Source of the DNA: Escherichia coli
GTDB taxonomy: Bacteria; Pseudomonadota; Gammaproteobacteria; Enterobacterales; Enterobacteriaceae
Length of the DNA stretch: 64,000 nucleotides
NCBI RefSeq assembly: GCF_041886205.1
Contig: NZ_CP169029.1
Direction: 5' to 3' (one strand)
Shown: in pieces, positions 7,552 to 46,112 of the stretch
Position numbering within the stretch: position 1 is the stretch's first letter
How the letters are laid out: each line of letters starts with the position of its first letter
Program-made: the position numbers and the translations under genes
Notes under the pieces: generated by a model
Databases searched by the model: none
Seen by the model: only the letters and a program-made list of their open reading frames with translations
Told to the model about the DNA's origin: nothing

Positions 7552-7584
7552 AAGGGGTTAGCTAAATGCTAACCCCTTTTTCTT
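7552..7584 (+). terminator. Intrinsic terminator after serT
   Basis: Hairpin AAGGGGTTAGC-TAAAT-GCTAACCCCTT followed by a T-rich tract. Confidence 0.8.
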
Positions 7585-7749: not shown

Positions 7750-8409
7750 ATGGATCGTATTGTTAGTTCTTCACATGACCGTACATCACTGCTTAGCACC
7801 CATAAGGTGCTGCGTAATACCTATTTTCTGCTGAGCCTGACGCTGGCCTTTTCGGCGATTACCGCAACTGCCAGTACGGTGCTGATGCTGCCATCTCCGG
7901 GTCTGATTCTGACGCTGGTGGGTATGTATGGTTTGATGTTCCTGACCTATAAAACGGCGAATAAGCCGACCGGGATTATCTCCGCATTCGCCTTTACCGG
8001 TTTTCTGGGTTATATCCTCGGACCAATTCTGAACACCTATCTGTCTGCCGGAATGGGTGACGTAATCGCTATGGCACTGGGCGGAACGGCGTTAGTGTTC
8101 TTCTGCTGCTCTGCATATGTGCTGACCACCCGCAAAGATATGTCGTTCCTCGGCGGTATGCTGATGGCGGGTATTGTGGTGGTGCTGATTGGTATGGTTG
8201 CTAATATCTTCCTGCAACTGCCTGCTCTGCATCTGGCGATCAGCGCGGTCTTCATTCTGATCTCCTCTGGCGCTATTTTGTTTGAAACCAGCAACATAAT
8301 TCATGGCGGTGAAACGAACTATATTCGTGCCACGGTTAGCCTGTATGTTTCGCTGTACAACATCTTCGTCAGCCTGCTGAGCATTCTGGGCTTCGCCAGC
8401 CGCGATTAA
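7750..8409 (+). CDS. yccA: Inner membrane protein YccA (BAX inhibitor-1 family, FtsH modulator), 219 aa
   Basis: Track [37 protein letters not shown]... matches YccA. Confidence 0.93.
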
Positions 8410-8431
8410 TCTCACCCGCTAACACTTTCAT

Positions 8432-8462
8432 AGCCTCGCTTTATGCGGGGCTTTGTTTTTTG
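8432..8462 (+). terminator. Probable intrinsic terminator after yccA
   Basis: Hairpin AGCCTCGC-TTTAT-GCGGGGCT (one G-U pair) followed by TTGTTTTTTGTT. Confidence 0.6.
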
Positions 8463-8499
8463 TTACACTGCCGCCAGTCTGATTAAGGTAGTAATAATT

Positions 8500-8829
8500 A
8501 TGCTGATCTTCGAAGGTAAAGAGATAGAAACGGATACCGAAGGCTATCTCAAAGAAAGCAGCCAGTGGAGTGAACCGCTGGCAGTGGTGATTGCAAAGAA
8601 CGAAGGGATTTCGCTGTCGCCAGAACACTGGGAAGTGGTGCGTTTTGTGCGTGATTTCTATCTGGAATTTAATACGTCTCCGGCGATTCGTATGCTGGTA
8701 AAAGCGATGGCGAATAAATTTGGTGAAGAAAAAGGTAACAGCCGCTATTTATACCGACTGTTCCCGAAAGGCCCGGCAAAGCAAGCCACCAAAATTGCTG
8801 GCCTGCCAAAACCGGTAAAATGTATTTAA
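8500..8829 (+). CDS. tusE: Sulfurtransferase TusE (109 aa)
   Basis: Track ORF 8443..8829; the known product starts at [19 protein letters not shown] (ATG at 8500). Confidence 0.9.
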
Positions 8830-9104
8830 CGGATACGAAAATCGGTTAATTCACCCGAGGGATGATGCGGCTCGCTGAGCACCCGTTCTACACGCGCAGA
8901 ACGCGGGCCGCCACTCTTTAACCACTGCATTAATTTTTCTACCTGCCCTTCTTCACCGCAAGCAACCACTTCCACGCTGCCATCGTCAAGATTTTTGGCG
9001 TACCCGGTTAAACCCAGTCTTTTCGCTTCGTACTGTGTGGTGTAGCGAAATCCTACGCCCTGAACTCGCCCGTAAACCCAGGCAATTATGCAGACTTTCG
9101 ACAT
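8826..9104 (-). CDS. yccX: Acylphosphatase (YccX/AcyP), 92 aa
   Basis: Track ORF 8826..9317 contains [38 protein letters not shown]..., the acylphosphatase signature; start taken at that Met (9104). Confidence 0.88.
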
Positions 9105-9198
9105 TGCTGCTCTCCTTATCCTTAATGGACGCGTTGCAAATCCATGGAAAACTCCGGACAATGACGCCCATTTCTTTGCATCGACAGAAAAGTAAATT

Positions 9199-10389
9199 AT
9201 GAGTGTACGTTTAGTGTTAGCCAAAGGGCGCGAAAAATCATTACTTCGTCGCCATCCGTGGGTCTTTTCCGGGGCCGTTGCCCGCATGGAAGGTAAAGCC
9301 AGCCTCGGTGAAACCATCGATATTGTTGATCATCAGGGAAAATGGTTAGCACGCGGCGCTTATTCGCCAGCTTCGCAAATCCGGGCGCGCGTCTGGACGT
9401 TTGACCCGTCTGAGTCTATCGACATTGCTTTTTTTTCCCGCCGTTTGCAACAGGCACAAAAATGGCGTGACTGGCTGGCGCAAAAAGATGGCCTCGACAG
9501 CTATCGTTTAATCGCCGGAGAATCTGATGGCCTGCCGGGTATTACTATCGATCGTTTCGGTAATTTTCTGGTGCTGCAACTGCTGAGTGCTGGCGCAGAG
9601 TATCAGCGCGCGGCATTAATTAGCGCCCTGCAAACGCTTTACCCGGAATGTGCGATTTACGATCGCAGCGATGTTGCGGTACGTAAAAAAGAAGGGATGG
9701 AGCTGACCCAGGGCCTCGTCACCGGCGAGTTGCCACCTGCCCTGCTGCCGATTGAAGAACACGGCATGAAGCTGCTGGTGGATATTCAGCACGGACACAA
9801 AACGGGCTACTACCTGGACCAGCGAGACAGCCGCCTGGCTACCCGCCGCTACGTTGAAAATAAACGTGTGCTGAACTGTTTCTCCTATACCGGTGGTTTC
9901 TCCGTATCGGCACTGATGGGCGGTTGCAGCCAGGTTGTCAGCGTTGATACCTCCCAGGAAGCGCTGGATATTGCACGGCAGAACGTTGAGCTGAACAAAC
10001 TGGATCTGAGCAAGGCTGAGTTTGTCCGTGATGATGTCTTTAAATTGCTGCGTACTTATCGCGATCGCGGTGAAAAATTTGACGTTATCGTGATGGACCC
10101 GCCGAAGTTTGTTGAGAATAAAAGCCAGTTGATGGGCGCGTGTCGTGGCTATAAAGACATCAACATGCTGGCGATTCAGCTGCTGAATGAAGGCGGTATT
10201 CTCCTGACTTTCTCCTGTTCCGGTCTGATGACCAGCGATTTATTTCAGAAAATCATCGCGGATGCCGCAATTGATGCCGGTCGTGATGTACAATTTATAG
10301 AGCAGTTCCGTCAGGCAGCCGATCATCCGGTGATCGCTACCTACCCGGAAGGGCTATATCTGAAAGGGTTTGCCTGTCGCGTCATGTAA
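9199..10389 (+). CDS. rlmI: 23S rRNA m5C1962 methyltransferase RlmI (396 aa)
   Basis: Track [30 protein letters not shown]... matches RlmI (YccW). Confidence 0.93.
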
Positions 10390-12642: not shown

Positions 12643-14697
12643 TTACGGTTTTCTCGCCACCGGTACATCCAGATTTTTCAGTATTGCCACAAAGGGAGAG
12701 GGATTCTCTTTGTTAAACAGTGCCCATACCCGATGACGTGCCCGGGTCAGCGCCACGTACATTAACCGCCGTTCTTCAGCGTCCGGGAAATCCTCAACCG
12801 GTGGCAGTAGCGCCTCTTCCATAATCGACTCCCGCGCCGCAGCCGGAAAACCATCACTTCCCTCCTGCAAGCCAACGATGATGACGTAATCCGCCTGTTG
12901 CCCTTTGCTGGCATGAATGGTCATAAAGTCGATTTGCAACTTCGGCCAGCGTGTTGCCGCTTTTTCCAGGCTGGCAGGCCTCATGTGATGGTAACGCGCC
13001 AGGATCAGAATGCGCTCTTCCGGTTTGGCATAACCAGAGAGCTTATCCAGCAAAGCGTCAAGTTGACTCTCATCCAATAACGTGACGGCTTTTTTGTCTC
13101 CATTGGTTAAGCTGTTTAGCGGCTTTTTCAGCTGGCCTGGGTTCTGCTGAATAAACCGGTTTGCCACCTCACCGATACGACTGTTAAAACGGTAAGTCGT
13201 GTCTAAATCACAACGTTCGCCTTCACCAAAGTTTTCATGGAAAGCGGTGGTGAGCGACATTTGCGCACCGCTGAATCGGTAAATCGCCTGCCAGTCATCA
13301 CCAACGGCGAACAACGTCGTCTGACTGTTTTGCTTGCGTAATGCCGCTAACAACGCTGCCCGCTGCGGCGAGATATCCTGAAATTCATCAACCAGAATAT
13401 GCTTCCACGGGCTGATAAAGCGACCTTTCTCCAGAATCACAATCGCCTGATGAATAAGGCCCGAAAAATCGACAGCCTTTTCTGCCTTCAGCGCACCTTT
13501 CCAGGCTTTTAATAACGGGGCCATCAACTTGATACGTTTACTGAACAGATCGCGAATCTCTTCGGGTGCACTGGCAATCATTTCTGCCTGTGCACCACCG
13601 TGCATCCGCATCAGACTTACCCAGCGATCGAGGCGAGAGGCAAGGCGACGCTGTAATTTTTCATCATCCCAGAAGTTACCTTCTGGCACTGACCACTGCA
13701 TTTCTTCCGTCAGCCATTGCCGCCAGCCCTTCTCCTGCGCTTTCTTTTCGCTGCATTGCTTGCGCCACTCAGCAATAAAGAGTTCATGACGGGCAGCGGT
13801 ATCATTTTCCAGTTTGCTGACTATCGGAACTTTTTTGCTGCCCTGCTGAATAATATGCAGCGCCAGCGCATGAAACGTGCGTGCGGTAATGTCTTCGGTA
13901 TGTAGCCGTTCGCGAATACGCTCGTCCATCTCTTCAGCGGCTTTGCGACCAAACGCCAGCAATAAAATTTGCTCAGGAGACGCTTCACCACGCGCCAGCA
14001 ACCAGCCTGCACGGGCCACCAGCACCGACGTTTTTCCGCTTCCTGCACCTGCCAGCACTAACAGAGAATGCTCGCCATTAACGACTGCCCGGGCCTGCGC
14101 CGGATTCAGCGGTGAAGACTCGACCTGGCGGAAAAAATCCGCATACTCGGTAAGCATGGCTTCGGTATACGCCTGGTTATGCTGCAACCGAGCGCTTTCA
14201 ATATCTTTCAACCAGGCCTGACATTTACGCCACGCCTCACGGCAGTTATCGAATTCTTCCAGTCGGTTAACCGGCAACGGCAACGCCGACAAAGCCTGGC
14301 GGATTTGTTGCTGAACGCCAGAGGTTTGCTCACGCGTCAGCCATTTATTTTCTCCAGTGCGCGTGGCAATCAAATCCAGTTGCTGTCGTAAAACACCAGA
14401 CGCAATTTCGCTCATCTCGCCACTCCACCGCCGCCAGTGAGCATCAAGATGATGGTAAAAACGCTGCGTCTCGCCCCATTCGGTGCCGTGCAGACGCACC
14501 ACTTTTTCGTCCGGCAGTACAAATTCCAGCTCGCCCCATACCAGACCGCGCTTACAGTGAATCGCCAGTAATTGATTGAAAGGAATAAGGTATTCGTGGC
14601 GATCGCCGGAGACTTTAATCCCGGCATTGAGGATCACCGCCCGATCGTAAGGGTGCTGTGCCAGACGTTTTCCAAGCGTTGTCGCTTTCAGTTCCAT
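12643..14697 (-). CDS. helD: DNA helicase IV (HelD), 684 aa
   Basis: Track ORF 12643..14790; the known product starts at MELKATTLGKRLAQHPYDRAV (ATG at 14697); UvrD-type Walker A GAGSGKTS is present. Confidence 0.93.
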   Translation of the reverse strand: MELKATTLGKRLAQHPYDRAVILNAGIKVSGDRHEYLIPFNQLLAIHCKRGLVWGELEFVLPDEKVVRLHGTEWGETQRFYHHLDAHWRRWSGEMSEIASGVLRQQLDLIATRTGENKWLTREQTSGVQQQIRQALSALPLPVNRLEEFDNCREAWRKCQAWLKDIESARLQHNQAYTEAMLTEYADFFRQVESSPLNPAQARAVVNGEHSLLVLAGAGSGKTSVLVARAGWLLARGEASPEQILLLAFGRKAAEEMDERIRERLHTEDITARTFHALALHIIQQGSKKVPIVSKLENDTAARHELFIAEWRKQCSEKKAQEKGWRQWLTEEMQWSVPEGNFWDDEKLQRRLASRLDRWVSLMRMHGGAQAEMIASAPEEIRDLFSKRIKLMAPLLKAWKGALKAEKAVDFSGLIHQAIVILEKGRFISPWKHILVDEFQDISPQRAALLAALRKQNSQTTLFAVGDDWQAIYRFSGAQMSLTTAFHENFGEGERCDLDTTYRFNSRIGEVANRFIQQNPGQLKKPLNSLTNGDKKAVTLLDESQLDALLDKLSGYAKPEERILILARYHHMRPASLEKAATRWPKLQIDFMTIHASKGQQADYVIIVGLQEGSDGFPAAARESIMEEALLPPVEDFPDAEERRLMYVALTRARHRVWALFNKENPSPFVAILKNLDVPVARKP

Positions 14698-15275: not shown

Positions 15276-17438
15276 ATGGCCTTTATGCTAAGTCCTTTGC
15301 TCAAACGCTATACCTGGAACAGCGCCTGGCTGTATTACGCGCGTATTTTTATTGCGCTTTGTGGAACCACAGCGTTTCCGTGGTGGCTGGGTGATGTAAA
15401 ACTGACGATTCCGCTAACGCTGGGGATGGTGGCAGCGGCGCTGACCGATCTCGATGACCGACTGGCGGGACGTTTGCGTAACCTCATCATTACGCTGTTC
15501 TGCTTTTTTATCGCCTCGGCCTCAGTAGAATTGCTGTTTCCCTGGCCCTGGCTATTTGCGATTGGCTTAACGCTCTCTACCAGCGGCTTCATTTTGCTCG
15601 GCGGTCTGGGTCAACGCTATGCAACAATTGCCTTCGGTGCATTGCTGATCGCCATTTACACTATGTTGGGAACATCACTTTATGAGCACTGGTATCAGCA
15701 GCCGATGTATCTGCTGGCCGGTGCCGTCTGGTACAACGTCCTGACACTTATTGGTCATCTGCTGTTCCCGGTCCGCCCGCTGCAGGACAACCTGGCGCGT
15801 TGCTATGAACAACTGGCGCGTTATCTTGAGCTCAAGTCGCGCATGTTTGATCCTGATATTGAAGATGAAAGCCAGGCACCGCTGTACGATTTGGCTCTCG
15901 CCAACGGACAGCTGATGGCGACATTGAATCAGACGAAACTCTCGCTGCTGACCCGCTTACGTGGCGATCGTGGTCAACGGGGAACGCGTCGCACGCTGCA
16001 TTATTACTTTGTCGCGCAGGATATTCACGAGCGTGCCAGCTCTTCTCATATTCAGTATCAAACATTGCGTGAACATTTTCGCCACAGCGACGTGCTGTTC
16101 CGTTTTCAGCGGCTGATGTCGATGCAGGGCCAGGCGTGCCAGCAACTGTCACGCTGTATTTTGCTGCGTCAGCCTTATCAACATGATCCGCATTTTGAGC
16201 GCGCTTTTACGCATATTGATGCTGCCCTGGAGCGGATGCGCGATAACGGCGCGCCTGCCGATTTACTCAAAACACTAGGATTTTTGCTGAACAATTTACG
16301 CGCCATTGATGCCCAACTGGCAACAATTGAATCAGAACAGGCCCAGGCACTACCCCATAATAATGACGAAAATGAGCTCGCTGATGACAGCCCGCACGGA
16401 TTGAGTGATATCTGGCTGCGTCTTAGCCGTCACTTCACGCCGGAGTCCGCCCTCTTCCGTCATGCGGTTAGAATGTCGCTGGTGTTGTGTTTCGGCTACG
16501 CCATCATTCAGATAACCGGAATGCATCACGGGTATTGGATCTTGCTGACAAGTTTGTTTGTCTGCCAGCCAAACTATAACGCCACGCGCCACCGCCTGAA
16601 GTTAAGGATTATTGGTACGCTGGTAGGTATCGCCATTGGCATTCCTGTGCTGTGGTTTGTACCGTCACTGGAAGGGCAGCTGGTGCTACTGGTTATTACC
16701 GGCGTGCTCTTTTTTGCCTTCCGTAACGTGCAATATGCCCATGCAACGATGTTCATCACACTTTTGGTGCTACTGTGTTTTAACTTGCTGGGTGAAGGTT
16801 TTGAAGTAGCGTTACCTCGCGTAATCGATACGCTGATTGGTTGTGCCATTGCGTGGGCGGCAGTGAGCTACATCTGGCCTGACTGGCGGTTTCGCAATCT
16901 GCCGCGCATGCTCGAACGCGCCACCGAGGCCAACTGTCGGTATCTCGATGCCATACTGGAGCAATACCATCAGGGGCGTGATAACCGTCTGGCGTATCGT
17001 ATTGCCCGCCGCGATGCACACAACCGTGATGCTGAGCTGGCGTCGGTGGTATCAAACATGTCCAGCGAACCGAACGTTACCCCGCAAATTCGAGAGGCCG
17101 CGTTTCGGTTACTGTGCCTTAACCATACGTTTACCAGCTATATCTCAGCCCTCGGTGCTCACCGGGAGCAGTTAACTAATCCTGAAATTCTGGCGTTTCT
17201 TGATGACGCAGTTTGCTATGTTGATGACGCGTTACATCATCAACCTGCTGATGAAAAACGCGTCAATCAGGCATTAGCTGGCCTGAAACAGCGGATGCAG
17301 CAACTTGAACCACGGGCAGACAGCAAAGAACCTCTGGTCGTACAACAAGTTGGGTTATTGATTGCATTACTGCCTGAGATTGGTCGTCTGCAACGCCAGA
17401 TTACTCAAGTTCCGCAGGAAACTCCTGTTTCGGCGTAA
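15276..17438 (+). CDS. yccS: Inner membrane protein YccS (FUSC-like, about 717-720 aa); alternative start at 15285
   Basis: Track ORF MAFMLSPLLKRYTWNSAWLYYARIF...; I recall the reference product starting MLSPLL (ATG 15285). Begins 10 nt after the yccF stop, so likely co-transcribed. Confidence 0.88.
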   Translation: MAFMLSPLLKRYTWNSAWLYYARIFIALCGTTAFPWWLGDVKLTIPLTLGMVAAALTDLDDRLAGRLRNLIITLFCFFIASASVELLFPWPWLFAIGLTLSTSGFILLGGLGQRYATIAFGALLIAIYTMLGTSLYEHWYQQPMYLLAGAVWYNVLTLIGHLLFPVRPLQDNLARCYEQLARYLELKSRMFDPDIEDESQAPLYDLALANGQLMATLNQTKLSLLTRLRGDRGQRGTRRTLHYYFVAQDIHERASSSHIQYQTLREHFRHSDVLFRFQRLMSMQGQACQQLSRCILLRQPYQHDPHFERAFTHIDAALERMRDNGAPADLLKTLGFLLNNLRAIDAQLATIESEQAQALPHNNDENELADDSPHGLSDIWLRLSRHFTPESALFRHAVRMSLVLCFGYAIIQITGMHHGYWILLTSLFVCQPNYNATRHRLKLRIIGTLVGIAIGIPVLWFVPSLEGQLVLLVITGVLFFAFRNVQYAHATMFITLLVLLCFNLLGEGFEVALPRVIDTLIGCAIAWAAVSYIWPDWRFRNLPRMLERATEANCRYLDAILEQYHQGRDNRLAYRIARRDAHNRDAELASVVSNMSSEPNVTPQIREAAFRLLCLNHTFTSYISALGAHREQLTNPEILAFLDDAVCYVDDALHHQPADEKRVNQALAGLKQRMQQLEPRADSKEPLVVQQVGLLIALLPEIGRLQRQITQVPQETPVSA

Positions 17439-18030
17439 GAGAGTCAGCCCATTCTGCTAGCTCCTGGCGGCGTGCCACCGGGAGCGCAGCTTCATGAATC
17501 CCGATAATGGCACCTTCAAGCATAAACAGAATCTTTTCTGTCACCAGACTGTTTTGCTGCCGCAGTCGCAACCAACACATTTTTGCCCCAAGTATACGTA
17601 ACGCCCGTACATCCTTAATCCCCACCTCCCCGAGAATCGCTTCCAGATGAAAAGACATATTGGGCAAATCTTTCAGTCTTTCCCGGGTATTGCGCGTGCT
17701 TTTCTCTTTCAGCGCTGCATCGAGAGAATATTTCGACAGACGCACCAGCTTCAGTTGATTTCGCCATAGACTTTCATCAACCCGATAGTAATTGAGGGTA
17801 ACGGATCGGCCACACTTTTTATATGTCAGCCAGACAGGCGGATGTTTTACACAGTACTGTGCACTTTGCTCACAAGCCCGAAGATACAACTCACCATCAG
17901 AAACCATCGCAAACACCGTGTCGTCAACGGTCAGGCTGTAACTACCAAACAATGATCGGTATTCAATTGTGCCCAACGTTGCCAGGTATTCTTGTGATTT
18001 ATAGATCCGCTTATAGGAGAGGTTTTTCAT
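17401..18030 (-). CDS. sxy: Competence regulator Sxy/TfoX (209 aa)
   Basis: Track ORF MKNLSYKRIYKSQEYLATLGTIEYRSLFGSYSLTVDD... matches Sxy; 3' end overlaps the yccS 3' end by 38 nt. Confidence 0.92.
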   Translation of the reverse strand: MKNLSYKRIYKSQEYLATLGTIEYRSLFGSYSLTVDDTVFAMVSDGELYLRACEQSAQYCVKHPPVWLTYKKCGRSVTLNYYRVDESLWRNQLKLVRLSKYSLDAALKEKSTRNTRERLKDLPNMSFHLEAILGEVGIKDVRALRILGAKMCWLRLRQQNSLVTEKILFMLEGAIIGIHEAALPVARRQELAEWADSLTPKQEFPAELE

Positions 18031-23228: not shown

Positions 23229-23249
23229 TTATAATCAGACAGAGTATCA

Positions 23250-23286
23250 AAAGGCGAAACCTCCGCAATGCGGAGGTTTCTTTTTA
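23250..23286. terminator. Bidirectional intrinsic terminator between convergent fabA and rmf
   Basis: Stem AAACCTCCG-CAATG-CGGAGGTTT with T-tract downstream and A-tract upstream. Confidence 0.85.
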
Positions 23287-23297
23287 AAGAGACAGAA

Positions 23298-23465
23298 TCA
23301 GGCCATTACTACCCTGTCCGCCATGGCTTCTCGCCAGCCTCCCAGCCATTGTGACCTTTGATTCAGCGTCTGATAGGGACACATTTCTTTTGAGCGTCCG
23401 GCGATGCCGGCCTGATAACCACGTTGATGTGCCCGTTCCAGGCGATCTCGTTTTTGTCTCTTCAT
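23298..23465 (-). CDS. rmf: Ribosome modulation factor Rmf (55 aa)
   Basis: Reverse translation from ATG at 23465 gives MKRQKRDRLERAHQRGYQAGIAG...; below the 60-aa track cutoff. The track ORF 23284..23481 is in a different frame. Confidence 0.9.
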   Translation of the reverse strand: MKRQKRDRLERAHQRGYQAGIAGRSKEMCPYQTLNQRSQWLGGWREAMADRVVMA

Positions 23466-31579: not shown

Positions 31580-32689
31580 GTGGTGACATTAACCCGGCTT
31601 TTTATTCATCCTGTTAAATCGATGCGCGGCATTGGTCTTACACATGCTCTGGCTGATGTCAGTGGTCTGGCCTTCGATCGCATCTTTATGATCACGGAAC
31701 CTGACGGTACGTTTATTACCGCTCGCCAGTTTCCCCAGATGGTACGGTTTACTCCTTCACCTGTGCATGATGGCTTGCATCTCACCGCACCAGATGGCAG
31801 TAGTGCATATGTTCGTTTTGCTGATTTCGCCACACAAGACGCACCAACCGAAGTTTGGGGCACACATTTTACCGCGCGAATTGCGCCAGACGCGATCAAC
31901 AAATGGTTAAGTGGGTTTTTCTCCCGCGAAGTGCAATTGCGCTGGGTGGGGCCACAAATGACGCGGCGCGTGAAACGCCACAACACTGTACCCCTGTCAT
32001 TTGCTGATGGCTATCCTTACCTTCTTGCTAACGAAGCCTCGTTACGTGATCTCCAACAACGTTGTCCGGCCAGTGTAAAAATGGAGCAATTCCGCCCCAA
32101 TCTGGTGGTTTCCGGCGCGTCAGCCTGGGAAGAAGATAGCTGGAAAGTGATTCGCATTGGTGATGTGGTGTTTGATGTGGTTAAACCTTGTAGCCGCTGT
32201 ATTTTCACCACCGTCAGCCCAGAAAAAGGGCAAAAACATCCGGCAGGCGAACCATTAAAAACGCTGCAATCTTTCCGCACTGCCCAGGATAACGGCGATG
32301 TCGATTTTGGTCAGAATTTAATTGCCCGTAATAGCGGCGTGATTCGCGTTGGCGATGAGGTGGAAATTCTGGCAACGGCACCGGCTAAAATTTACGGCGC
32401 AGCTGCCGCTGATGATACCGTCAACATCACGCAACAACCGGACGCCAATGTAGATATTGACTGGCAGGGTCAGGCATTTCGTGGAAATAACCAACAGGTG
32501 CTGCTGGAGCAATTAGAAAATCAGGGAATTCGTATCCCTTATTCTTGCCGCGCGGGCATTTGTGGAAGTTGCCGTGTTCAGCTTTTAGAAGGCGAAGTCA
32601 CGCCGCTGAAAAAATCAGCAATGGGCGATGATGGCACCATTCTTTGCTGTAGCTGTGTACCGAAGACTGCCCTTAAGCTGACGCGTTAG
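31580..32689 (+). CDS. ycbX: MOSC-domain plus 2Fe-2S ferredoxin protein YcbX (369 aa), GTG start
   Basis: Track [30 protein letters not shown]...; C-terminal CxxxxCxxC ferredoxin motif ([11 protein letters not shown]). Confidence 0.9.
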
Positions 32690-33228
32690 ACTGCCTGTTC
32701 GAGGCTGAAGCTGTCAACATTCACCTGCGGTTTCAGCCTGTCGTTCATGATTTTAATGGCGTCGCCCAACTGCATCGCGCGACCCGCAATAACAACGCAG
32801 GGTTGCGCCAGCAGACATAGCGCGGCATTCTCGCCAGATTCAACGACCAGTAAATTCACTTGCTCGTTAGTGTCGCTCAACCAAACGCAGGCCGCATCGC
32901 CCGGCATTGGTGCCCACATTTCGCCATGGGAAACAAAATGCCAGCTTTTCGGCATTTGCGGTTTGAGATAACGAATTGCTACCAGTGCATTCAGCACCAG
33001 TTCGGCTTTTTGTTCTTTAGATAAATAAAAATCGCGGCACTTTTCTTCAAACGAGAAATAGAGCGCGGCATCGTCAACGCAAAAGCCTGCGGGAGAAAAG
33101 GCATCTGGAGTCAACATTTTGCGCGCAAAACGTGAGCGAAATAGCATACCATTGGCTAAATCGAGCATCATTCGATCGTGCTCTTCATCGTAATACCAAC
33201 GCCAGTTATCGTCTGGTTTAATTCGCAT
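32686..33228 (-). CDS. zapC: Cell-division protein ZapC (180 aa)
   Basis: Track ORF 32686..33264; the known product starts at [24 protein letters not shown] (ATG at 33228). Confidence 0.9.
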
Positions 33229-33401: not shown

Positions 33402-34412
33402 TTAGATATGGGTAACGATTTCTTTAATCAGCGGCGGACCTTTAAAAATAAAACCAGAATAAATTTGCACCAGTGAGGCACCCGCAGCAATCTTTTCACG
33501 CGCAGCGATAACCGAGTCGATGCCGCCAACCCCGATGATCGGTAAGCGACCGTTTAATTCCAGTGACAAGCGGCGAATAATTTCGGTGCTTTTTAACTGA
33601 AGCGGACGACCACTTAAGCCACCGGTTTGATCGCAATTTTTCATTCCCTGAACCAGAGAACGATCGAGTGTGGTATTGGTTGCAATAACGCCATCAATAT
33701 TATGGCGAACTAAACTATCGGCAACCTGGATCAATTCGTCTTCAGAAAGATCCGGCGCGATCTTCACTGCGATCGGCACATATTTATGGTGCATCGCTTG
33801 CAAATCATTTTGCTTATTTTTAATCGCGGTTAAGAGATCATCCAGCGCTTCACCATATTGCAGCGTGCGTAATCCTGGGGTATTCGGCGATGAAATATTG
33901 ATGGCGATATATCCCGCATAGGCATAGATTTTTTCCATACAAATCAGATAGTCATCTTTTCCCTGCTCCACTGGCGTATCTTTATTTTTGCCGATATTAA
34001 TACCCAGGACGCCGTCATAATGGGCCTTTTTTACGTTCTCTACGAGGTTATCAACGCCAAGATTATTAAAGCCCATACGGTTGATCAAACCTTCGGCATC
34101 TACCAGACGAAAGAGACGCGGCTTGTCATTACCTGGCTGTGGACGTGGCGTGACGGTACCGATCTCGATCGATCCAAATCCCATCGCGCCTAACGCATCA
34201 ATGCACTCCCCGTCTTTATCAAGACCGGCTGCCAGACCAAGCGGATTTTTAAACGTCAGGCCCATGCAGTTAACAGGTTTCGCAGGCACTTTCTGCCGCA
34301 CCAGTGCTTCAAACGGCGTTCCAGTAATGCGGCGTAATTGCTGAAAAGTAAACTCATGAGCGCGCTCTGGATCGAGCTGGAAAAGGGCTTTACGAACGAA
34401 GGGGTAGTACAT
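33402..34412 (-). CDS. pyrD: Dihydroorotate dehydrogenase (quinone), PyrD (336 aa)
   Basis: Track ORF 33402..34439; the known product starts at [28 protein letters not shown] (ATG at 34412). Confidence 0.95.
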
Positions 34413-34498
34413 GAACTCTCCTGGATTCCCGGTGTGCAAACCGGGGGCGTATTATGTGCGAGTTCGGACCAAAAGGGAATTGACCTGCGGCAAAAAAA

Positions 34499-34522: not shown

Positions 34523-35232
34523 TCAGGGCAGATTTTGCTCCTTCTTTGCACTCAACCCGCCGTAATCATTTATCGCCCGCCAGGCGACATGACACGGTGC
34601 TATTGCCTGACACCAGCTTGTCTGACGCTGGCTTTTAGGTGGCACAACTCCCGCATTACTTAACGCTTTACCATTTACGCTCACCTGAATCAGATTAATG
34701 TAGTAAGGCGTTGGGTTAGTGAGTTGCACACCCTGCGAATTCCGTGTCCAGCGTAATTGTTGATAAGCTTCCAGCGGGTCACCCGGCAAACCTTCGGGTC
34801 GCCAGAACAGTTTAAATACCGAGCGCATCGCCACTTTTACGCTCTGATTTTCGACTTTGCCGGATGGCACGCTGGCAATGCTTAACTCAAATAGCGTTTC
34901 GCGATCCACAGGCAAGATGTTGCTTTCCGTTCTCAGTAAGCGCAACGTGCCTGTAGTACCGGGCTTCAGGAGAATAAGTGGCGGAGCGGCCAGTAATGGT
35001 GCTGGCACTGTCGACGCTTCCCCCCGGCCCAACGCGTTGGGCGATTGATTTTACTGTTAATAAGCCAGGATTCCTGACTGGTATTAGTCAGTAAAATAGA
35101 TATCGATTCGCTGTCTGCCGGAAAGATAAATCGCGTTCCGCCGACCACCACTCCTGCCTGCAATTCACCCGCCACCAGCAGCGATAAAACGGCAAAAATC
35201 AAGAGCGCCAATCTGTTCCACGTATTAGTCAT
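34523..35232 (-). pseudogene. ycbF: Fimbrial periplasmic chaperone YcbF, disrupted by a frameshift in a 6-nt homopolymer (C6 on + strand, 35020..35025)
   Basis: The N-terminal part (MTNTWNRLALLIFAVLSLLVAGELQA..., track ORF 34966..35259) and the C-terminal part (track ORF 34523..35032) are in different frames. Adding one G to the minus-strand G6 run gives a continuous 236-aa PapD-like chaperone. Confidence 0.7.
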
Positions 35233-35740
35233 AATGAAGTACAAATGTCGCGCTGGCATTCACTTTACCCGACTGCACATCGCTATTAACAGGTCGCAAT
35301 TGCGCATAAAAAGTTAATGGCACCTTACCGCTATGTAGGCTGTAGTCTTTACTCGCCTGGTTAAGCGGAATCAACATCTTCGCATCATCCAGAATCGCAA
35401 TTGCCAGCCCGCTGGCTGCATCCGTACCACTTTCAATGGACAGCATTTCGCTCTGCACTCCGTCGGGGGTTCCTGAAAAGGTGACGTCAACCGTGCTGAC
35501 ATCTGTTCCGCAATCCTGCAAATTAATGATGAAAGATTTCTCCGGGCCATAATTCCCATGAGAAAAACGTGTCAGCGAGACATCGCCTAACTGCACATTG
35601 ATTTGCGTGCTATCCTGTGCTAGCACGCATGTATTACGGCGAAACGATCCGCTAATGTTGACCGTACCATCATGGGCAAATAGCTCACAGCCCCCCGTTA
35701 ATCCCAGTAAGCACAGAATCCAGATTATCCTTTTCAACAT
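35225..35740 (-). CDS. ycbV: Fimbrial-like subunit YcbV (171 aa)
   Basis: Track ORF 35225..35788; start taken at MLKRIIWILCLLGLTGG (35740), 5 nt after the ycbU stop. Confidence 0.85.
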   Translation of the reverse strand: MLKRIIWILCLLGLTGGCELFAHDGTVNISGSFRRNTCVLAQDSTQINVQLGDVSLTRFSHGNYGPEKSFIINLQDCGTDVSTVDVTFSGTPDGVQSEMLSIESGTDAASGLAIAILDDAKMLIPLNQASKDYSLHSGKVPLTFYAQLRPVNSDVQSGKVNASATFVLHYD

Positions 35741-35747
35741 CACTCCT

Positions 35748-36290
35748 TCACTGGTAAACCAGATCAAAATAGAGAACCGCCGTCGCATTACCGCCCGTTG
35801 CTCCCGCCTTTGTGGACTTATAACGAAGTTGATATTTGAGTGTGTTATCCCCGGCTTTTAAGGGCGTAAGAGGCTGGACCTGATTGAGCGGGATTTCTTG
35901 CTGAGTTTGCGCATCAAGAATTTGTACGGCAATCCCCGTTGCCATACCACCGCTTCCGCCTGTGTCAGTTAGTTTGAGCAGTGTCGGCGCAAGGGTGTCA
36001 GCCTCGCCGCTAAAAAGGACGTCCGCGCCAGTAATACCAGCGGCACAACCGGTAATATCGATATTCAAATCAGCAGCAGTGCTTACGGTATTCGCGGCCT
36101 GAAAATCACTGATATTAAAATCACCAATATGAATATTTTGTAATGCACTTTTGGTGGCGACATCACAGCCCTGATCGACCACATTACCATAAATATGCAT
36201 ACTCACTTGTTCAGGCCCAGCCATCCCGATATGGATGTTAAGAAGGCTAAAGAACAAAATAACGCACTGATATATCATTTTTTTCTTCAT
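35748..36290 (-). CDS. ycbU: Fimbrial-like subunit YcbU (180 aa)
   Basis: Track ORF MKKKMIYQCVILFFSLLNIHIGMAGPEQV..., signal peptide plus pilin-like C-terminus. Confidence 0.88.
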   Translation of the reverse strand: MKKKMIYQCVILFFSLLNIHIGMAGPEQVSMHIYGNVVDQGCDVATKSALQNIHIGDFNISDFQAANTVSTAADLNIDITGCAAGITGADVLFSGEADTLAPTLLKLTDTGGSGGMATGIAVQILDAQTQQEIPLNQVQPLTPLKAGDNTLKYQLRYKSTKAGATGGNATAVLYFDLVYQ

Positions 36291-36301
36291 ACGTTCACGC
36301 G

Positions 36302-39963
<3,662 letters not shown>

Positions 39964-39987
39964 CTCGCTCTCTTAACTGAAGACGGC

Positions 39988-40689
39988 TTACGATTTACAG
40001 TTGAGTTGCGGCGTTTCCGCCCCGTAGTCATTGATGGTTCGGTACGTCAGGCTGCTGTTTTTGGCACCCTTTGGCAGAGAGAATTGGTATTTATCAAAAG
40101 GGGAAATCATTTGATTTTTAACTACTTTCCCACCAATTTTCAGACCTGTCAGGGTAATGAAATAAGGTGTTGGGTTACTGACCGAAACCATGTCAGCTGA
40201 CGAAGTGCAACGTAGTTTTTCCGGAGCTTCATCTGGAGAATACGGCAAACCTTTTGGTCGCCAGAAAAGTTTAATGACGCTTTGCGTAGCAATCTTCAGG
40301 GTATTGCCCTCTTCCCGCTTCGTTGTTGAAGGGACCGCCCGTACGCTGGTGAAGAAAAGGGTTTCCCTGTCTTTCGCCAACGGCGCGCCAATATACATAA
40401 TGCGTAACAGATTCTCATTTGCTGGATTCAGCACAAATAGCGGCGGTGTAATAATAAAGTCCGCTGACTTTTTATTATCTGGTGTCATCACCCATGACTG
40501 AATAAGATAAGGAACATCCGGACTGGTGTTACGCACACCCAGTGAAATTTGCTCTTCACCTTCCGAATAAACAAGGCGCGTTGCAGCAAGTCCAACCCCA
40601 CCGTTGCCTGCCGCCCATGCGGACGAACAGCTTAGCAATATTGCCGTTAAACTTACGGTCACAATTCCCTTTGTTATGCAAGTTCTCAT
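39988..40689 (-). CDS. elfD: Fimbrial periplasmic chaperone ElfD (YcbR), 233 aa
   Basis: Track ORF MRTCITKGIVTVSLTAILLSCSSAWAAGNGGVGLAATRLVYSEGEEQISLGVRN..., PapD-like chaperone. Confidence 0.9.
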   Translation of the reverse strand: MRTCITKGIVTVSLTAILLSCSSAWAAGNGGVGLAATRLVYSEGEEQISLGVRNTSPDVPYLIQSWVMTPDNKKSADFIITPPLFVLNPANENLLRIMYIGAPLAKDRETLFFTSVRAVPSTTKREEGNTLKIATQSVIKLFWRPKGLPYSPDEAPEKLRCTSSADMVSVSNPTPYFITLTGLKIGGKVVKNQMISPFDKYQFSLPKGAKNSSLTYRTINDYGAETPQLNCKS

Positions 40690-40772
40690 AAAAAATTACT
40701 CTTAGATAAATATAAACATCCCCTCTAATAAGTTTATTAAAGGGGGGATTAATGAATCGTTAAAAAATTTTA

Positions 40773-41315
40773 TCAATAATAGTTAATATGAAAATCTGTT
40801 ACTGCATTGACATTACCTGCTGTCGCTTTACCGGTAGCAATATAATCAACTTTAAAGGTCACTGTTTGCTCAGCAGAATCTGCTAACTGAATATTCGTGG
40901 TTTCAGTTCCAGGAGTCACCGTTGTTGACCCATCTGGCATATACAATTGTAGAGCAACATTCGTCGCTGCATCGGTGGAAGCTTGATTAGCAAATGCTGT
41001 AGGTTGCACACCATCAGCCGTACCACTGAAAGTAAAAGCAGCATTTTTAGTTACAGTAACATCACAATCTTCTAAAGCAATTGGTACATCAGTTTTAACG
41101 CCAGAGACTGCTCCATTACTTTGCAACTTCGTTGCACTGACATTTGGCAGTGTGACTACTGAATCTTTTGTCGCAGCAACTAACGTACAGGCTGGAGCAA
41201 TGACTTTACCATTAAACGTAACGGAGCCGTCCGTGATGGCATTATCATCGGCCGCCATAACGCTGGACGTTACACACACCACAGTGATAAAAGCCGTCAA
41301 TACACTTTTTTTCAT
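40773..41315 (-). CDS. elfA: Major fimbrial subunit ElfA (YcbQ), about 180 aa
   Basis: Track ORF 40773..41324; start taken at MKKSVLTAFITVVCVTSSVMAADD (41315). Confidence 0.88.
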   Translation of the reverse strand: MKKSVLTAFITVVCVTSSVMAADDNAITDGSVTFNGKVIAPACTLVAATKDSVVTLPNVSATKLQSNGAVSGVKTDVPIALEDCDVTVTKNAAFTFSGTADGVQPTAFANQASTDAATNVALQLYMPDGSTTVTPGTETTNIQLADSAEQTVTFKVDYIATGKATAGNVNAVTDFHINYY

Positions 41316-41670
41316 CGTTATCATCCTGATTTGTTCGTAAATATGATAATGTCTTCAAATGACATTGGACTTAATAATAGCAATAATTATCCGCCATTTA
41401 AATGAAGCATACGCAATCCAATAGGTTACAAATCTTTAAATTATTTATTTCATGAATATATATTTATTACCTGAACGAGTAATACATTGATTAAACATGA
41501 ATTGAACAGCAAATAAATAAATCCACGTGATATATATGTCTCAATCCTTAGTTCATTTTTAGAAAAAGATACACAAAATTTATATTTGGCATTTTCTTGT
41601 CTCTCCGACAGACTAACCGAATTGTTATCGATGTTAACAAAATAAGAACAATTGGTTATAAGGAGAGAAT

Positions 41671-45909: not shown

Positions 45910-46100
45910 TGCCGGATGTGCCGCACAAAACCAGCAGTTTCAACGGATTGTAGGCCTGATAAGACGCGTCAAGCGTCGCATCAGGCATTTGGGCACGGCT
46001 GCCGGATGCGGCGTGAACGCCTTATCCAGCCTACAAAACCAGCATTTTCAACGGACTTGTAGGCCTGATAAGACGCGTCAAGCGTCGCATCCGGCATTTT
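45910..46100. repeat. REP/BIME cluster: two ~66-nt direct repeats (45927..45992 and 46035..46100) with an inverted REP-like copy between them
   Basis: Repeated motif TGTAGGCCTGATAAGACGCGTCAAGCGTCGCATC(A/C)GGCA and inverted GCCGGATGCGGCGTGAACGCCTTATCCAGCCTACA, the canonical E. coli REP palindrome family, between convergent ssuB and pepN. Confidence 0.9.
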
Positions 46101-46112
46101 GGCTCAAAAGTA

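Follow-up and report, generated by a model that had tools for sequence, protein, structure and literature searches.

The 64,000-nucleotide stretch of Escherichia coli DNA that we analyzed (hereafter, the window) contains three pairs of convergent genes whose coding sequences overlap tail to tail (Table 1). At tusE/yccX and ycbX/zapC the two stop codons share a single tetramer, and at yccS/sxy the overlap takes in the last ~12 codons plus the stop of each gene, such that sense codons of both genes lie on the same DNA. The original prediction had described all three overlaps, and its description was borne out: the letters, the open reading frames, and the RefSeq annotation agreed on the TTAA shared by tusE and yccX and on the TTAG within which the stops of ycbX and zapC overlap; the ORF coordinates and RefSeq likewise agreed on the 38 nt common to yccS and sxy; and every coordinate, gene name, and overlap length that it had given matched the RefSeq-annotated genome.

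Table 1. Genes, overlaps, transcript ends, and convergent junctions of the window. Distances between convergent coding sequences are signed, with negative values for overlaps.
Feature	Position (nt)	Strand	Detail	Source
tusE CDS (sulfurtransferase TusE, DsrC family)	8500..8829	+	stop TAA 8827-8829	ORF, RefSeq, Pfam
yccX CDS (acylphosphatase)	8826..9104	-	stop on 8826-8828	ORF, RefSeq, Pfam, PDB 2GV1
TTAA, 4-nt stop/stop overlap of tusE and yccX	8826..8829	.		sequence
Imperfect GC-rich hairpin, tusE 3' UTR, antisense to yccX	8867..8910	+	z -0.55	fold of 8830-8932
tusE transcript 3' end ('antisense yccX')	8925..8926	+	K-12 1030253/1030252 (-); mapped exactly	PMC7815308 file 1
yccS CDS (FUSC-like inner membrane protein)	15276..17438	+		ORF, RefSeq, Pfam
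sxy (tfoX) CDS	17401..18030	-		ORF, RefSeq, Pfam
38-nt overlap of yccS and sxy	17401..17438	.	last ~12 codons and stop of each gene	ORFs
ycbX CDS (MOSC/2Fe-2S protein)	31580..32689	+	stop TAG 32687-32689	ORF, RefSeq, Pfam
zapC CDS (cell division protein ZapC)	32686..33228	-	stop TAA on 32686-32688	ORF, RefSeq, Pfam, PDB 5FO3
TTAG, 4-nt stop/stop overlap of ycbX and zapC	32686..32689	.		sequence
zapC transcript 3' end ('antisense ycbX')	32584	-	K-12 1006586 (+); mapped	PMC7815308 file 1
Rho region antisense to ycbX	~32523	-	K-12 1006647 (+); score 7.2, p = 1e-24	PMC7815308 file 2
Rho region antisense to zapC	~33130	+	K-12 1006040 (-); score 4.3, p = 7e-8	PMC7815308 file 2
Convergent junction tusE/yccX			-4 nt
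Convergent junction hspQ/yccU			+44 nt
Convergent junction mgsA/helD			+31 nt
Convergent junction yccS/sxy			-38 nt
Convergent junction ompA/matP			+75 nt
Convergent junction fabA/rmf			+69 nt
Convergent junction ycbX/zapC			-4 nt
Convergent junction ssuB/pepN			about +205 nt
Convergent junction aspC/gloC			+48 nt

The DNA of the window is widely shared. Over positions 8000-10000 it was 100% identical to several complete genomes, one of which has a RefSeq annotation with the same coordinates and gene names, and most of the stretch was present in 5,424 of 5,426 genomes. Compared with NZ_AP027963.1, the window was collinear up to ~35017, with 27 scattered single-base differences. The window has an intact elf/ycb fimbrial operon (35018-41520), whereas the usher gene of one close relative is interrupted by an IS1 (~37628) and in another relative an IS1 replaces ~6.5 kb of the operon.

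All six products matched Pfam families above the curated cut-offs, and at tusE/yccX the matches reach, or nearly reach, the ends of the proteins. The DsrC domain spans residues 4-109 of the 109 in TusE, and alignments of solved DsrC homologues with TusE run to the final residue of those homologues. In the DsrC/TusE family, the conserved cysteine adjoining the C terminus is the active one. The acylphosphatase domain covers residues 8-91 of the 92 in YccX, and structures match YccX and ZapC over their full lengths (PDB 2GV1, residues 1-92 of 92; PDB 5FO3, residues 1-180 of 180). At the third junction the last recognizable domains stop short of the overlap, FUSC at residue 685 of 720 in YccS and TfoX_C at residue 194 of 209 in Sxy. 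Because of the Pfam matches and the full-length structures for YccX and ZapC, we regard these as six real genes with real stops.

Sharing a stop tetramer asks nothing of either protein. At tusE/yccX neither stop reaches further into the partner's final sense codon than its third base (ATT for the Ile of TusE, CGT for the Arg of YccX), and because only this wobble base is touched, the 4-nt overlap carries zero coding cost. Losing a stop, on the other hand, would lengthen TusE by 11 residues, YccX by 26, YcbX by 93, and ZapC by 35.

The length of the two minimal overlaps follows from the genetic code. Enumerating the arrangements possible with TAA, TAG, and TGA left no way for convergent genes to overlap by 1, 2, 3, or 5 nt; the minimum is 4 nt, which is feasible only at YTAR, i.e., at TTAA, CTAA, TTAG, or CTAG. 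The same four tetramers, together with a modal overlap length of 4 bp, were reported in an earlier survey of 58 genomes (Lillo and Krakauer, 2007; PMC2174442); because 1,218 of the 1,890 convergent overlaps in that survey were at least 5 nt long (its Tables 2 and 3), ~36% were of the 4-nt kind.

Three of the nine convergent junctions in the window overlap (binomial p for three or more, ~0.04 at a base rate of ~9%, a rate obtained by dividing the 58 convergent overlaps counted in E. coli in 2007 [PMC2174442] by ~650 convergent pairs, the latter number extrapolated from the density in the window). This excess is mild and was spotted post hoc, and we did not treat it as a signal. A further tail-to-tail overlap, 24 nt long, joins elyC (+) and ycbJ (-) ~2.5 kb past the window's right end (positions 33528-33551 of a relative's locus), and this pair also appears, as ycbJ-elyC, in a published list of E. 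coli excludons (PMC12288877). With this pair included, four of 10 successive convergent junctions overlap within ~67 kb (p ~0.01 at 9%, likewise post hoc). The widest convergent spacer of the window, between ssuB and pepN, holds two copies of a ~70-nt repeat (45925-46103), one of which matches the Rfam family naRNA4 (45953-46031, -); a related strain has one copy, and the length of the spacer ranges from ~96 to ~205 nt between strains.

To place the junctions in an evolutionary context, we used TusE as a query against one genome per species and collected the 80 closest species, with flanks of as much as 10 kb in either direction where the contig was long enough. All were Enterobacteriaceae with TusE identity of at least 84% (Escherichia, Salmonella, Citrobacter, Klebsiella, Raoultella, Enterobacter, Kosakonia, Buttiauxella, Cedecea, and other genera), with Yersinia, Serratia, and Vibrio lying outside the sample. 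The 4-nt overlap of tusE and yccX was present in 78 of the 80, although the species share kinship and the 78 are not independent observations. Its letters were TTAA in 44 species, TTAG in 15, CTAA in 11, and CTAG in 8, and because all four tetramers are used, the site evidently mutates, but only among the forms that preserve both stops. The two exceptions are instructive: in Entomohabitans teleogrylli the two stops are adjacent (TAATCA), and in Cedecea colo a 7-nt tandem duplication (TATTTAG TATTTAG) restores both ends with a 3-nt gap between them. In Escherichia, as seen in both E. coli and E. albertii, a 3-nt deletion drops the terminal Tyr codon of yccX (window 8829-8834), and the C terminus reads ...FRIR instead of the ...IRY of other genera; the 4-nt overlap with tusE is unaffected.

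The second minimal junction, sampled through ZapC homologues, had the 4-nt overlap in six of seven other taxa (Salmonella enterica, Klebsiella pneumoniae, Cronobacter malonaticus, Cedecea lapagei, Buttiauxella, and one further contig); in the seventh, Siccibacter colletis, zapC and ycbX are separated by a 4-nt gap. The 4-nt overlap thus recurs in orthologous pairs and is not an annotation quirk of a single genome.

The yccS/sxy junction behaved differently. Of the 55 species in which we located yccS and sxy together, ~50 have them overlapping, with an offset that took ~20 values among the 55 species and ranged from +13 to -65 nt. The commonest offset was -4 (13 species), followed by -23 and -16 (8 each); the 38-nt overlap was found only in E. 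coli, with E. albertii at -41. The C-terminal tails of the two proteins are not conserved in sequence across species. Among 82 sequences searched, 25 gave no Sxy match, and 10 of those 25 gave none for YccS either. Some sequences matched YccS and not Sxy, such as that of Salmonella enterica subsp. diarizonae, whereas subsp. arizonae matched both.

In the same genomes, then, junctions with constrained ends behave as if frozen (78/80) whereas free tails wander through ~20 offsets, which argues that coding constraint, and not selection for overlapping, sets the stability of a junction. Purifying selection on the protein ends rather than on the overlap itself would accordingly decide whether a junction stays fixed. 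YTAR, for its part, may be a natural stopping point for convergent genes that close up on each other, and the drifting yccS/sxy junction, too, is most often found in this state.

Where transcripts from these genes end can be read from published Term-seq data for strain MG1655 (Adams et al., 2021; PMC7815308), supplementary file 1 of which lists 3' ends and supplementary file 2 the Rho regions defined with bicyclomycin. When the flanking sequence was mapped onto the window, the tusE 3' end fell 96-97 nt beyond the tusE stop, within the yccX coding sequence; supplementary file 1 records it twice, in parts that we took to correspond to two of its three growth conditions, and the scores are ~1/4 to 1/3 of that of the neighboring yccA terminator. 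The zapC 3' end lies 102 nt beyond the zapC stop, within ycbX. Two Rho regions, whose window positions we inferred from the local offset between K-12 and the window, flank the ycbX/zapC junction: readthrough from zapC increases with bicyclomycin at the one antisense to ycbX, and the one on the + strand, ~441 nt past the ycbX stop, corresponds to readthrough from ycbX. Among the six genes, zapC and ycbX were the only two with bicyclomycin-sensitive readthrough in file 2, which has no Rho region for tusE, yccX, yccS, or sxy, and the Term-seq table has no 3' end for yccX, yccS, or sxy. The supplements of SMRT-Cappable-seq mention none of the six genes.

The original prediction had held that such overlaps imply overlapping antisense 3' ends, a claim that these data uphold: the Term-seq ends of tusE and zapC lie inside the partner genes, all three pairs are in the published list of convergent excludons, and the published maps (PMC7815308) record no 3' end upstream of any overlap, the observation that would have contradicted the claim. 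Its accompanying statement that the overlaps leave no room for separate terminators holds for intergenic space, of which there is none; it fails to the extent that signals or protective hairpins can sit in the coding sequence of the partner, as illustrated by the intrinsic terminators predicted in 21 of the 58 convergent overlaps of E. coli (for one gene in 19 cases and for both in 2; PMC2174442).

Two of the spaced junctions have mapped ends close to the neighboring gene as well. The Term-seq 3' end of mgsA falls at 12653 (+), 10 nt into the 3' end of the helD coding sequence (12643-14697, -), and therefore even a pair with a 31-nt spacer has overlapping 3' ends. At fabA/rmf (window 23233-23298), a + strand 3' end on the fabA side carries the label 'antisense rmf'; its mapped position, 23293, is 5 nt short of 23298, where the rmf coding sequence has its low end. 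The 3' end of rmf is labeled 'primary, antisense' to fabA in PMC7815308, which suggests that fabA and rmf share a bidirectional terminator in their 69-nt spacer.

What halts the polymerases at the overlapping junctions does not look like a canonical intrinsic terminator. Our scan of all three junctions found no canonical site shortly downstream of the six stops. The only sites nearby, weak ones on the minus strand within ycbX (32539..32523 and 32507..32491), do not coincide with the zapC end at 32584, and an intrinsic terminator within the partner gene was rejected as the explanation of the mapped ends, with which no GC-rich hairpin followed by a U-tract coincides. The stem of the hairpin in the tusE 3' UTR ends 15 nt before the tusE 3' end, with a stability no greater than that of shuffled sequence, and the RNA of this region is C-rich and G-poor (C minus G, +19 to +29%). 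Small hairpins lie just upstream of the zapC 3' end (z -2.2 to -2.6). Past the tusE stop, 79 aligned sequences gave an RNAalifold consensus of -2.5 kcal/mol with no compensatory pairs, i.e., no conserved RNA structure, a result that led us to reject a conserved terminator embedded after tusE.

At gathering thresholds, Rfam had no match at any of the three junctions. Elsewhere in the window it recognized the PyrD leader upstream of pyrD (34407-34480, -; 97.9 bits). An 11-bp perfect hairpin with a terminator score on both strands immediately follows a tRNA-Ser gene (7552-7578).

Taken together, we regard the three junctions as ordinary tail-to-tail overlaps with no dedicated function shown, two of them of the minimal kind, and assign this reading a probability of about 0.85. 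Overlaps of this sort probably originate by loss of a spacer or by 3' extension of a gene. Any TAA or TAG stop that follows a pyrimidine (YTAR) also reads as a stop on the opposite strand, one base over, and a convergent gene left without a spacer would tend to end there, sharing 4 nt with its neighbor. Once formed, such an overlap would be kept, since loss of a stop would extend the proteins by 11 to 93 residues and almost any indel would harm one C terminus or the other, and the junction would thereby appear frozen. Where the C-terminal tails are free of constraint, this process would let the length of the overlap drift between genera, as may have happened at yccS/sxy. In the absence of a spacer, each message would run on into the partner gene as C-rich antisense RNA that is not translated and would be terminated there, mostly via Rho and ~100 nt or more past the stop. 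Rho is the recorded terminator in both directions at ycbX/zapC and is probably also the one at tusE/yccX and yccS/sxy; alternatively, the tusE 3' end, positioned as it is shortly after a GC-rich stem, could reflect a weak intrinsic or a collision-type terminator.

A different reading is that the overlaps are selected excludons, in which polymerase interference and cleavage of the RNA duplex by RNase III make the partners mutually exclusive, hence their conservation. All three pairs are indeed listed among the convergent excludons of MG1655 (Table 1 of PMC12288877), and the class as a whole has shorter spacers, enrichment in p19-captured dsRNA, and near-exclusive expression in single cells, these being class-level statistics. 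The conservation of the 4-nt overlaps across Enterobacteriaceae would also fit, but it is accounted for by the coding constraint on both C termini, and where the tails are unconstrained (yccS/sxy) the length of the overlap drifts freely. The tusE 3' region, moreover, shows no conserved or covarying RNA structure, and we found no expression data specific to any of the three pairs. We therefore consider selected excludons an unlikely explanation.

We know of no functional link between tRNA thiolation and acylphosphatase activity, or between a MOSC protein and a Z-ring protein.

Somewhat less likely again is the idea that the junctions are overlapping bidirectional terminators driven by collision, at which converging polymerases pause at a shared hairpin and dislodge each other independently of Rho. 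Such terminators have been found between convergent E. coli pairs that have no canonical intrinsic terminators, which the six stops lack also, and upstream of both mapped 3' ends there is a hairpin. However, both directions at ycbX/zapC are bicyclomycin-sensitive and thus Rho-dependent, the end regions there are ~550 nt apart (32584 on the - strand versus ~33130 on the + strand) rather than at a short shared site, and at tusE/yccX an end has been mapped for one partner only.

A third possibility, which we consider more doubtful still, is that in Enterobacteriaceae the stop/stop overlap is itself under selection, with each mRNA invading the opposite gene to make tusE and yccX, and likewise zapC and ycbX, mutually exclusive. 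If true, selection on the overlap would explain its persistence through four tetramers and through the 3-nt deletion in Escherichia. The retention of the tusE/yccX overlap in nearly all species would also be expected under such selection, which counts against our preferred account; the contrast with yccS/sxy is what favors coding constraint.

The last alternative, that one gene of each pair is miscalled or ends earlier than annotated, draws on the theme that long prokaryotic overlaps are often mispredictions (PMC2478687) and on the poor conservation of the yccS and sxy tails, but we consider it ruled out for practical purposes: stops, unlike starts, are unambiguous, the Pfam matches (6/6 proteins) and full-length structures described above indicate genuine genes, and identical stop positions recur in dozens of species.

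The overlaps are thus real and ordinary, and the literature already covers them, as a class of sequence arrangement and through maps of their overlapping transcripts. As ordinary overlaps they make a textbook case of how compact bacterial genomes tolerate shared stops and of how convergent mRNAs without a spacer end inside their neighbors. On their own they are of little importance, and what our analysis contributes is a small comparative addition, the contrast between frozen and drifting junctions.

Set beside known systems, the three junctions resemble several classes to different degrees. Overlapping bidirectional terminators that act through colliding polymerases (Ju et al., 2019; Wang et al., 2022, 10.1101/2022.10.23.513370) share with them the convergent arrangement and the lack of canonical intrinsic terminators, but that class is Rho-independent and confined to a short shared region, whereas ycbX/zapC is Rho-sensitive with ends hundreds of nucleotides apart. 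Rho-terminated mRNAs have been described as ending right after stable stem-loops that lack a U-tract, with Rho-loading sites just downstream (Dar and Sorek, 2018; PMC6061677). Compared with ends of this type (PMC6061677 and PMC7815308), those studied here likewise lie ~100 nt past the stops, by hairpins without a U-tract, with bicyclomycin sensitivity on both strands at ycbX/zapC; tusE fits loosely, having C-rich, G-poor RNA but a hairpin no more stable than shuffled sequence, and for tusE/yccX and yccS/sxy the published data carry no record of Rho dependence.

Convergent excludons, for which ExcludonFinder names zapC-ycbX, sxy-yccS, and yccX-tusE (Sanmartin et al., 2025, PMC12288877; reviewed in PMC7154746), are alike in that their transcripts overlap at the 3' ends. 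On average, however, 95 nt of intergenic DNA separates the members of an E. coli excludon pair, whereas here the coding sequences themselves overlap, and any mutual repression within these three pairs is putative. The closest likeness is to the minimal 4-bp convergent overlaps cataloged by Lillo and Krakauer (PMC2174442) and in the PairWise Neighbours database (PMC2716372), with which tusE/yccX and ycbX/zapC are identical in geometry and in their tetramers. From this class they do not differ in kind, and what is added here is the stability of two specific junctions across Enterobacteriaceae through all four of the permitted tetramers.
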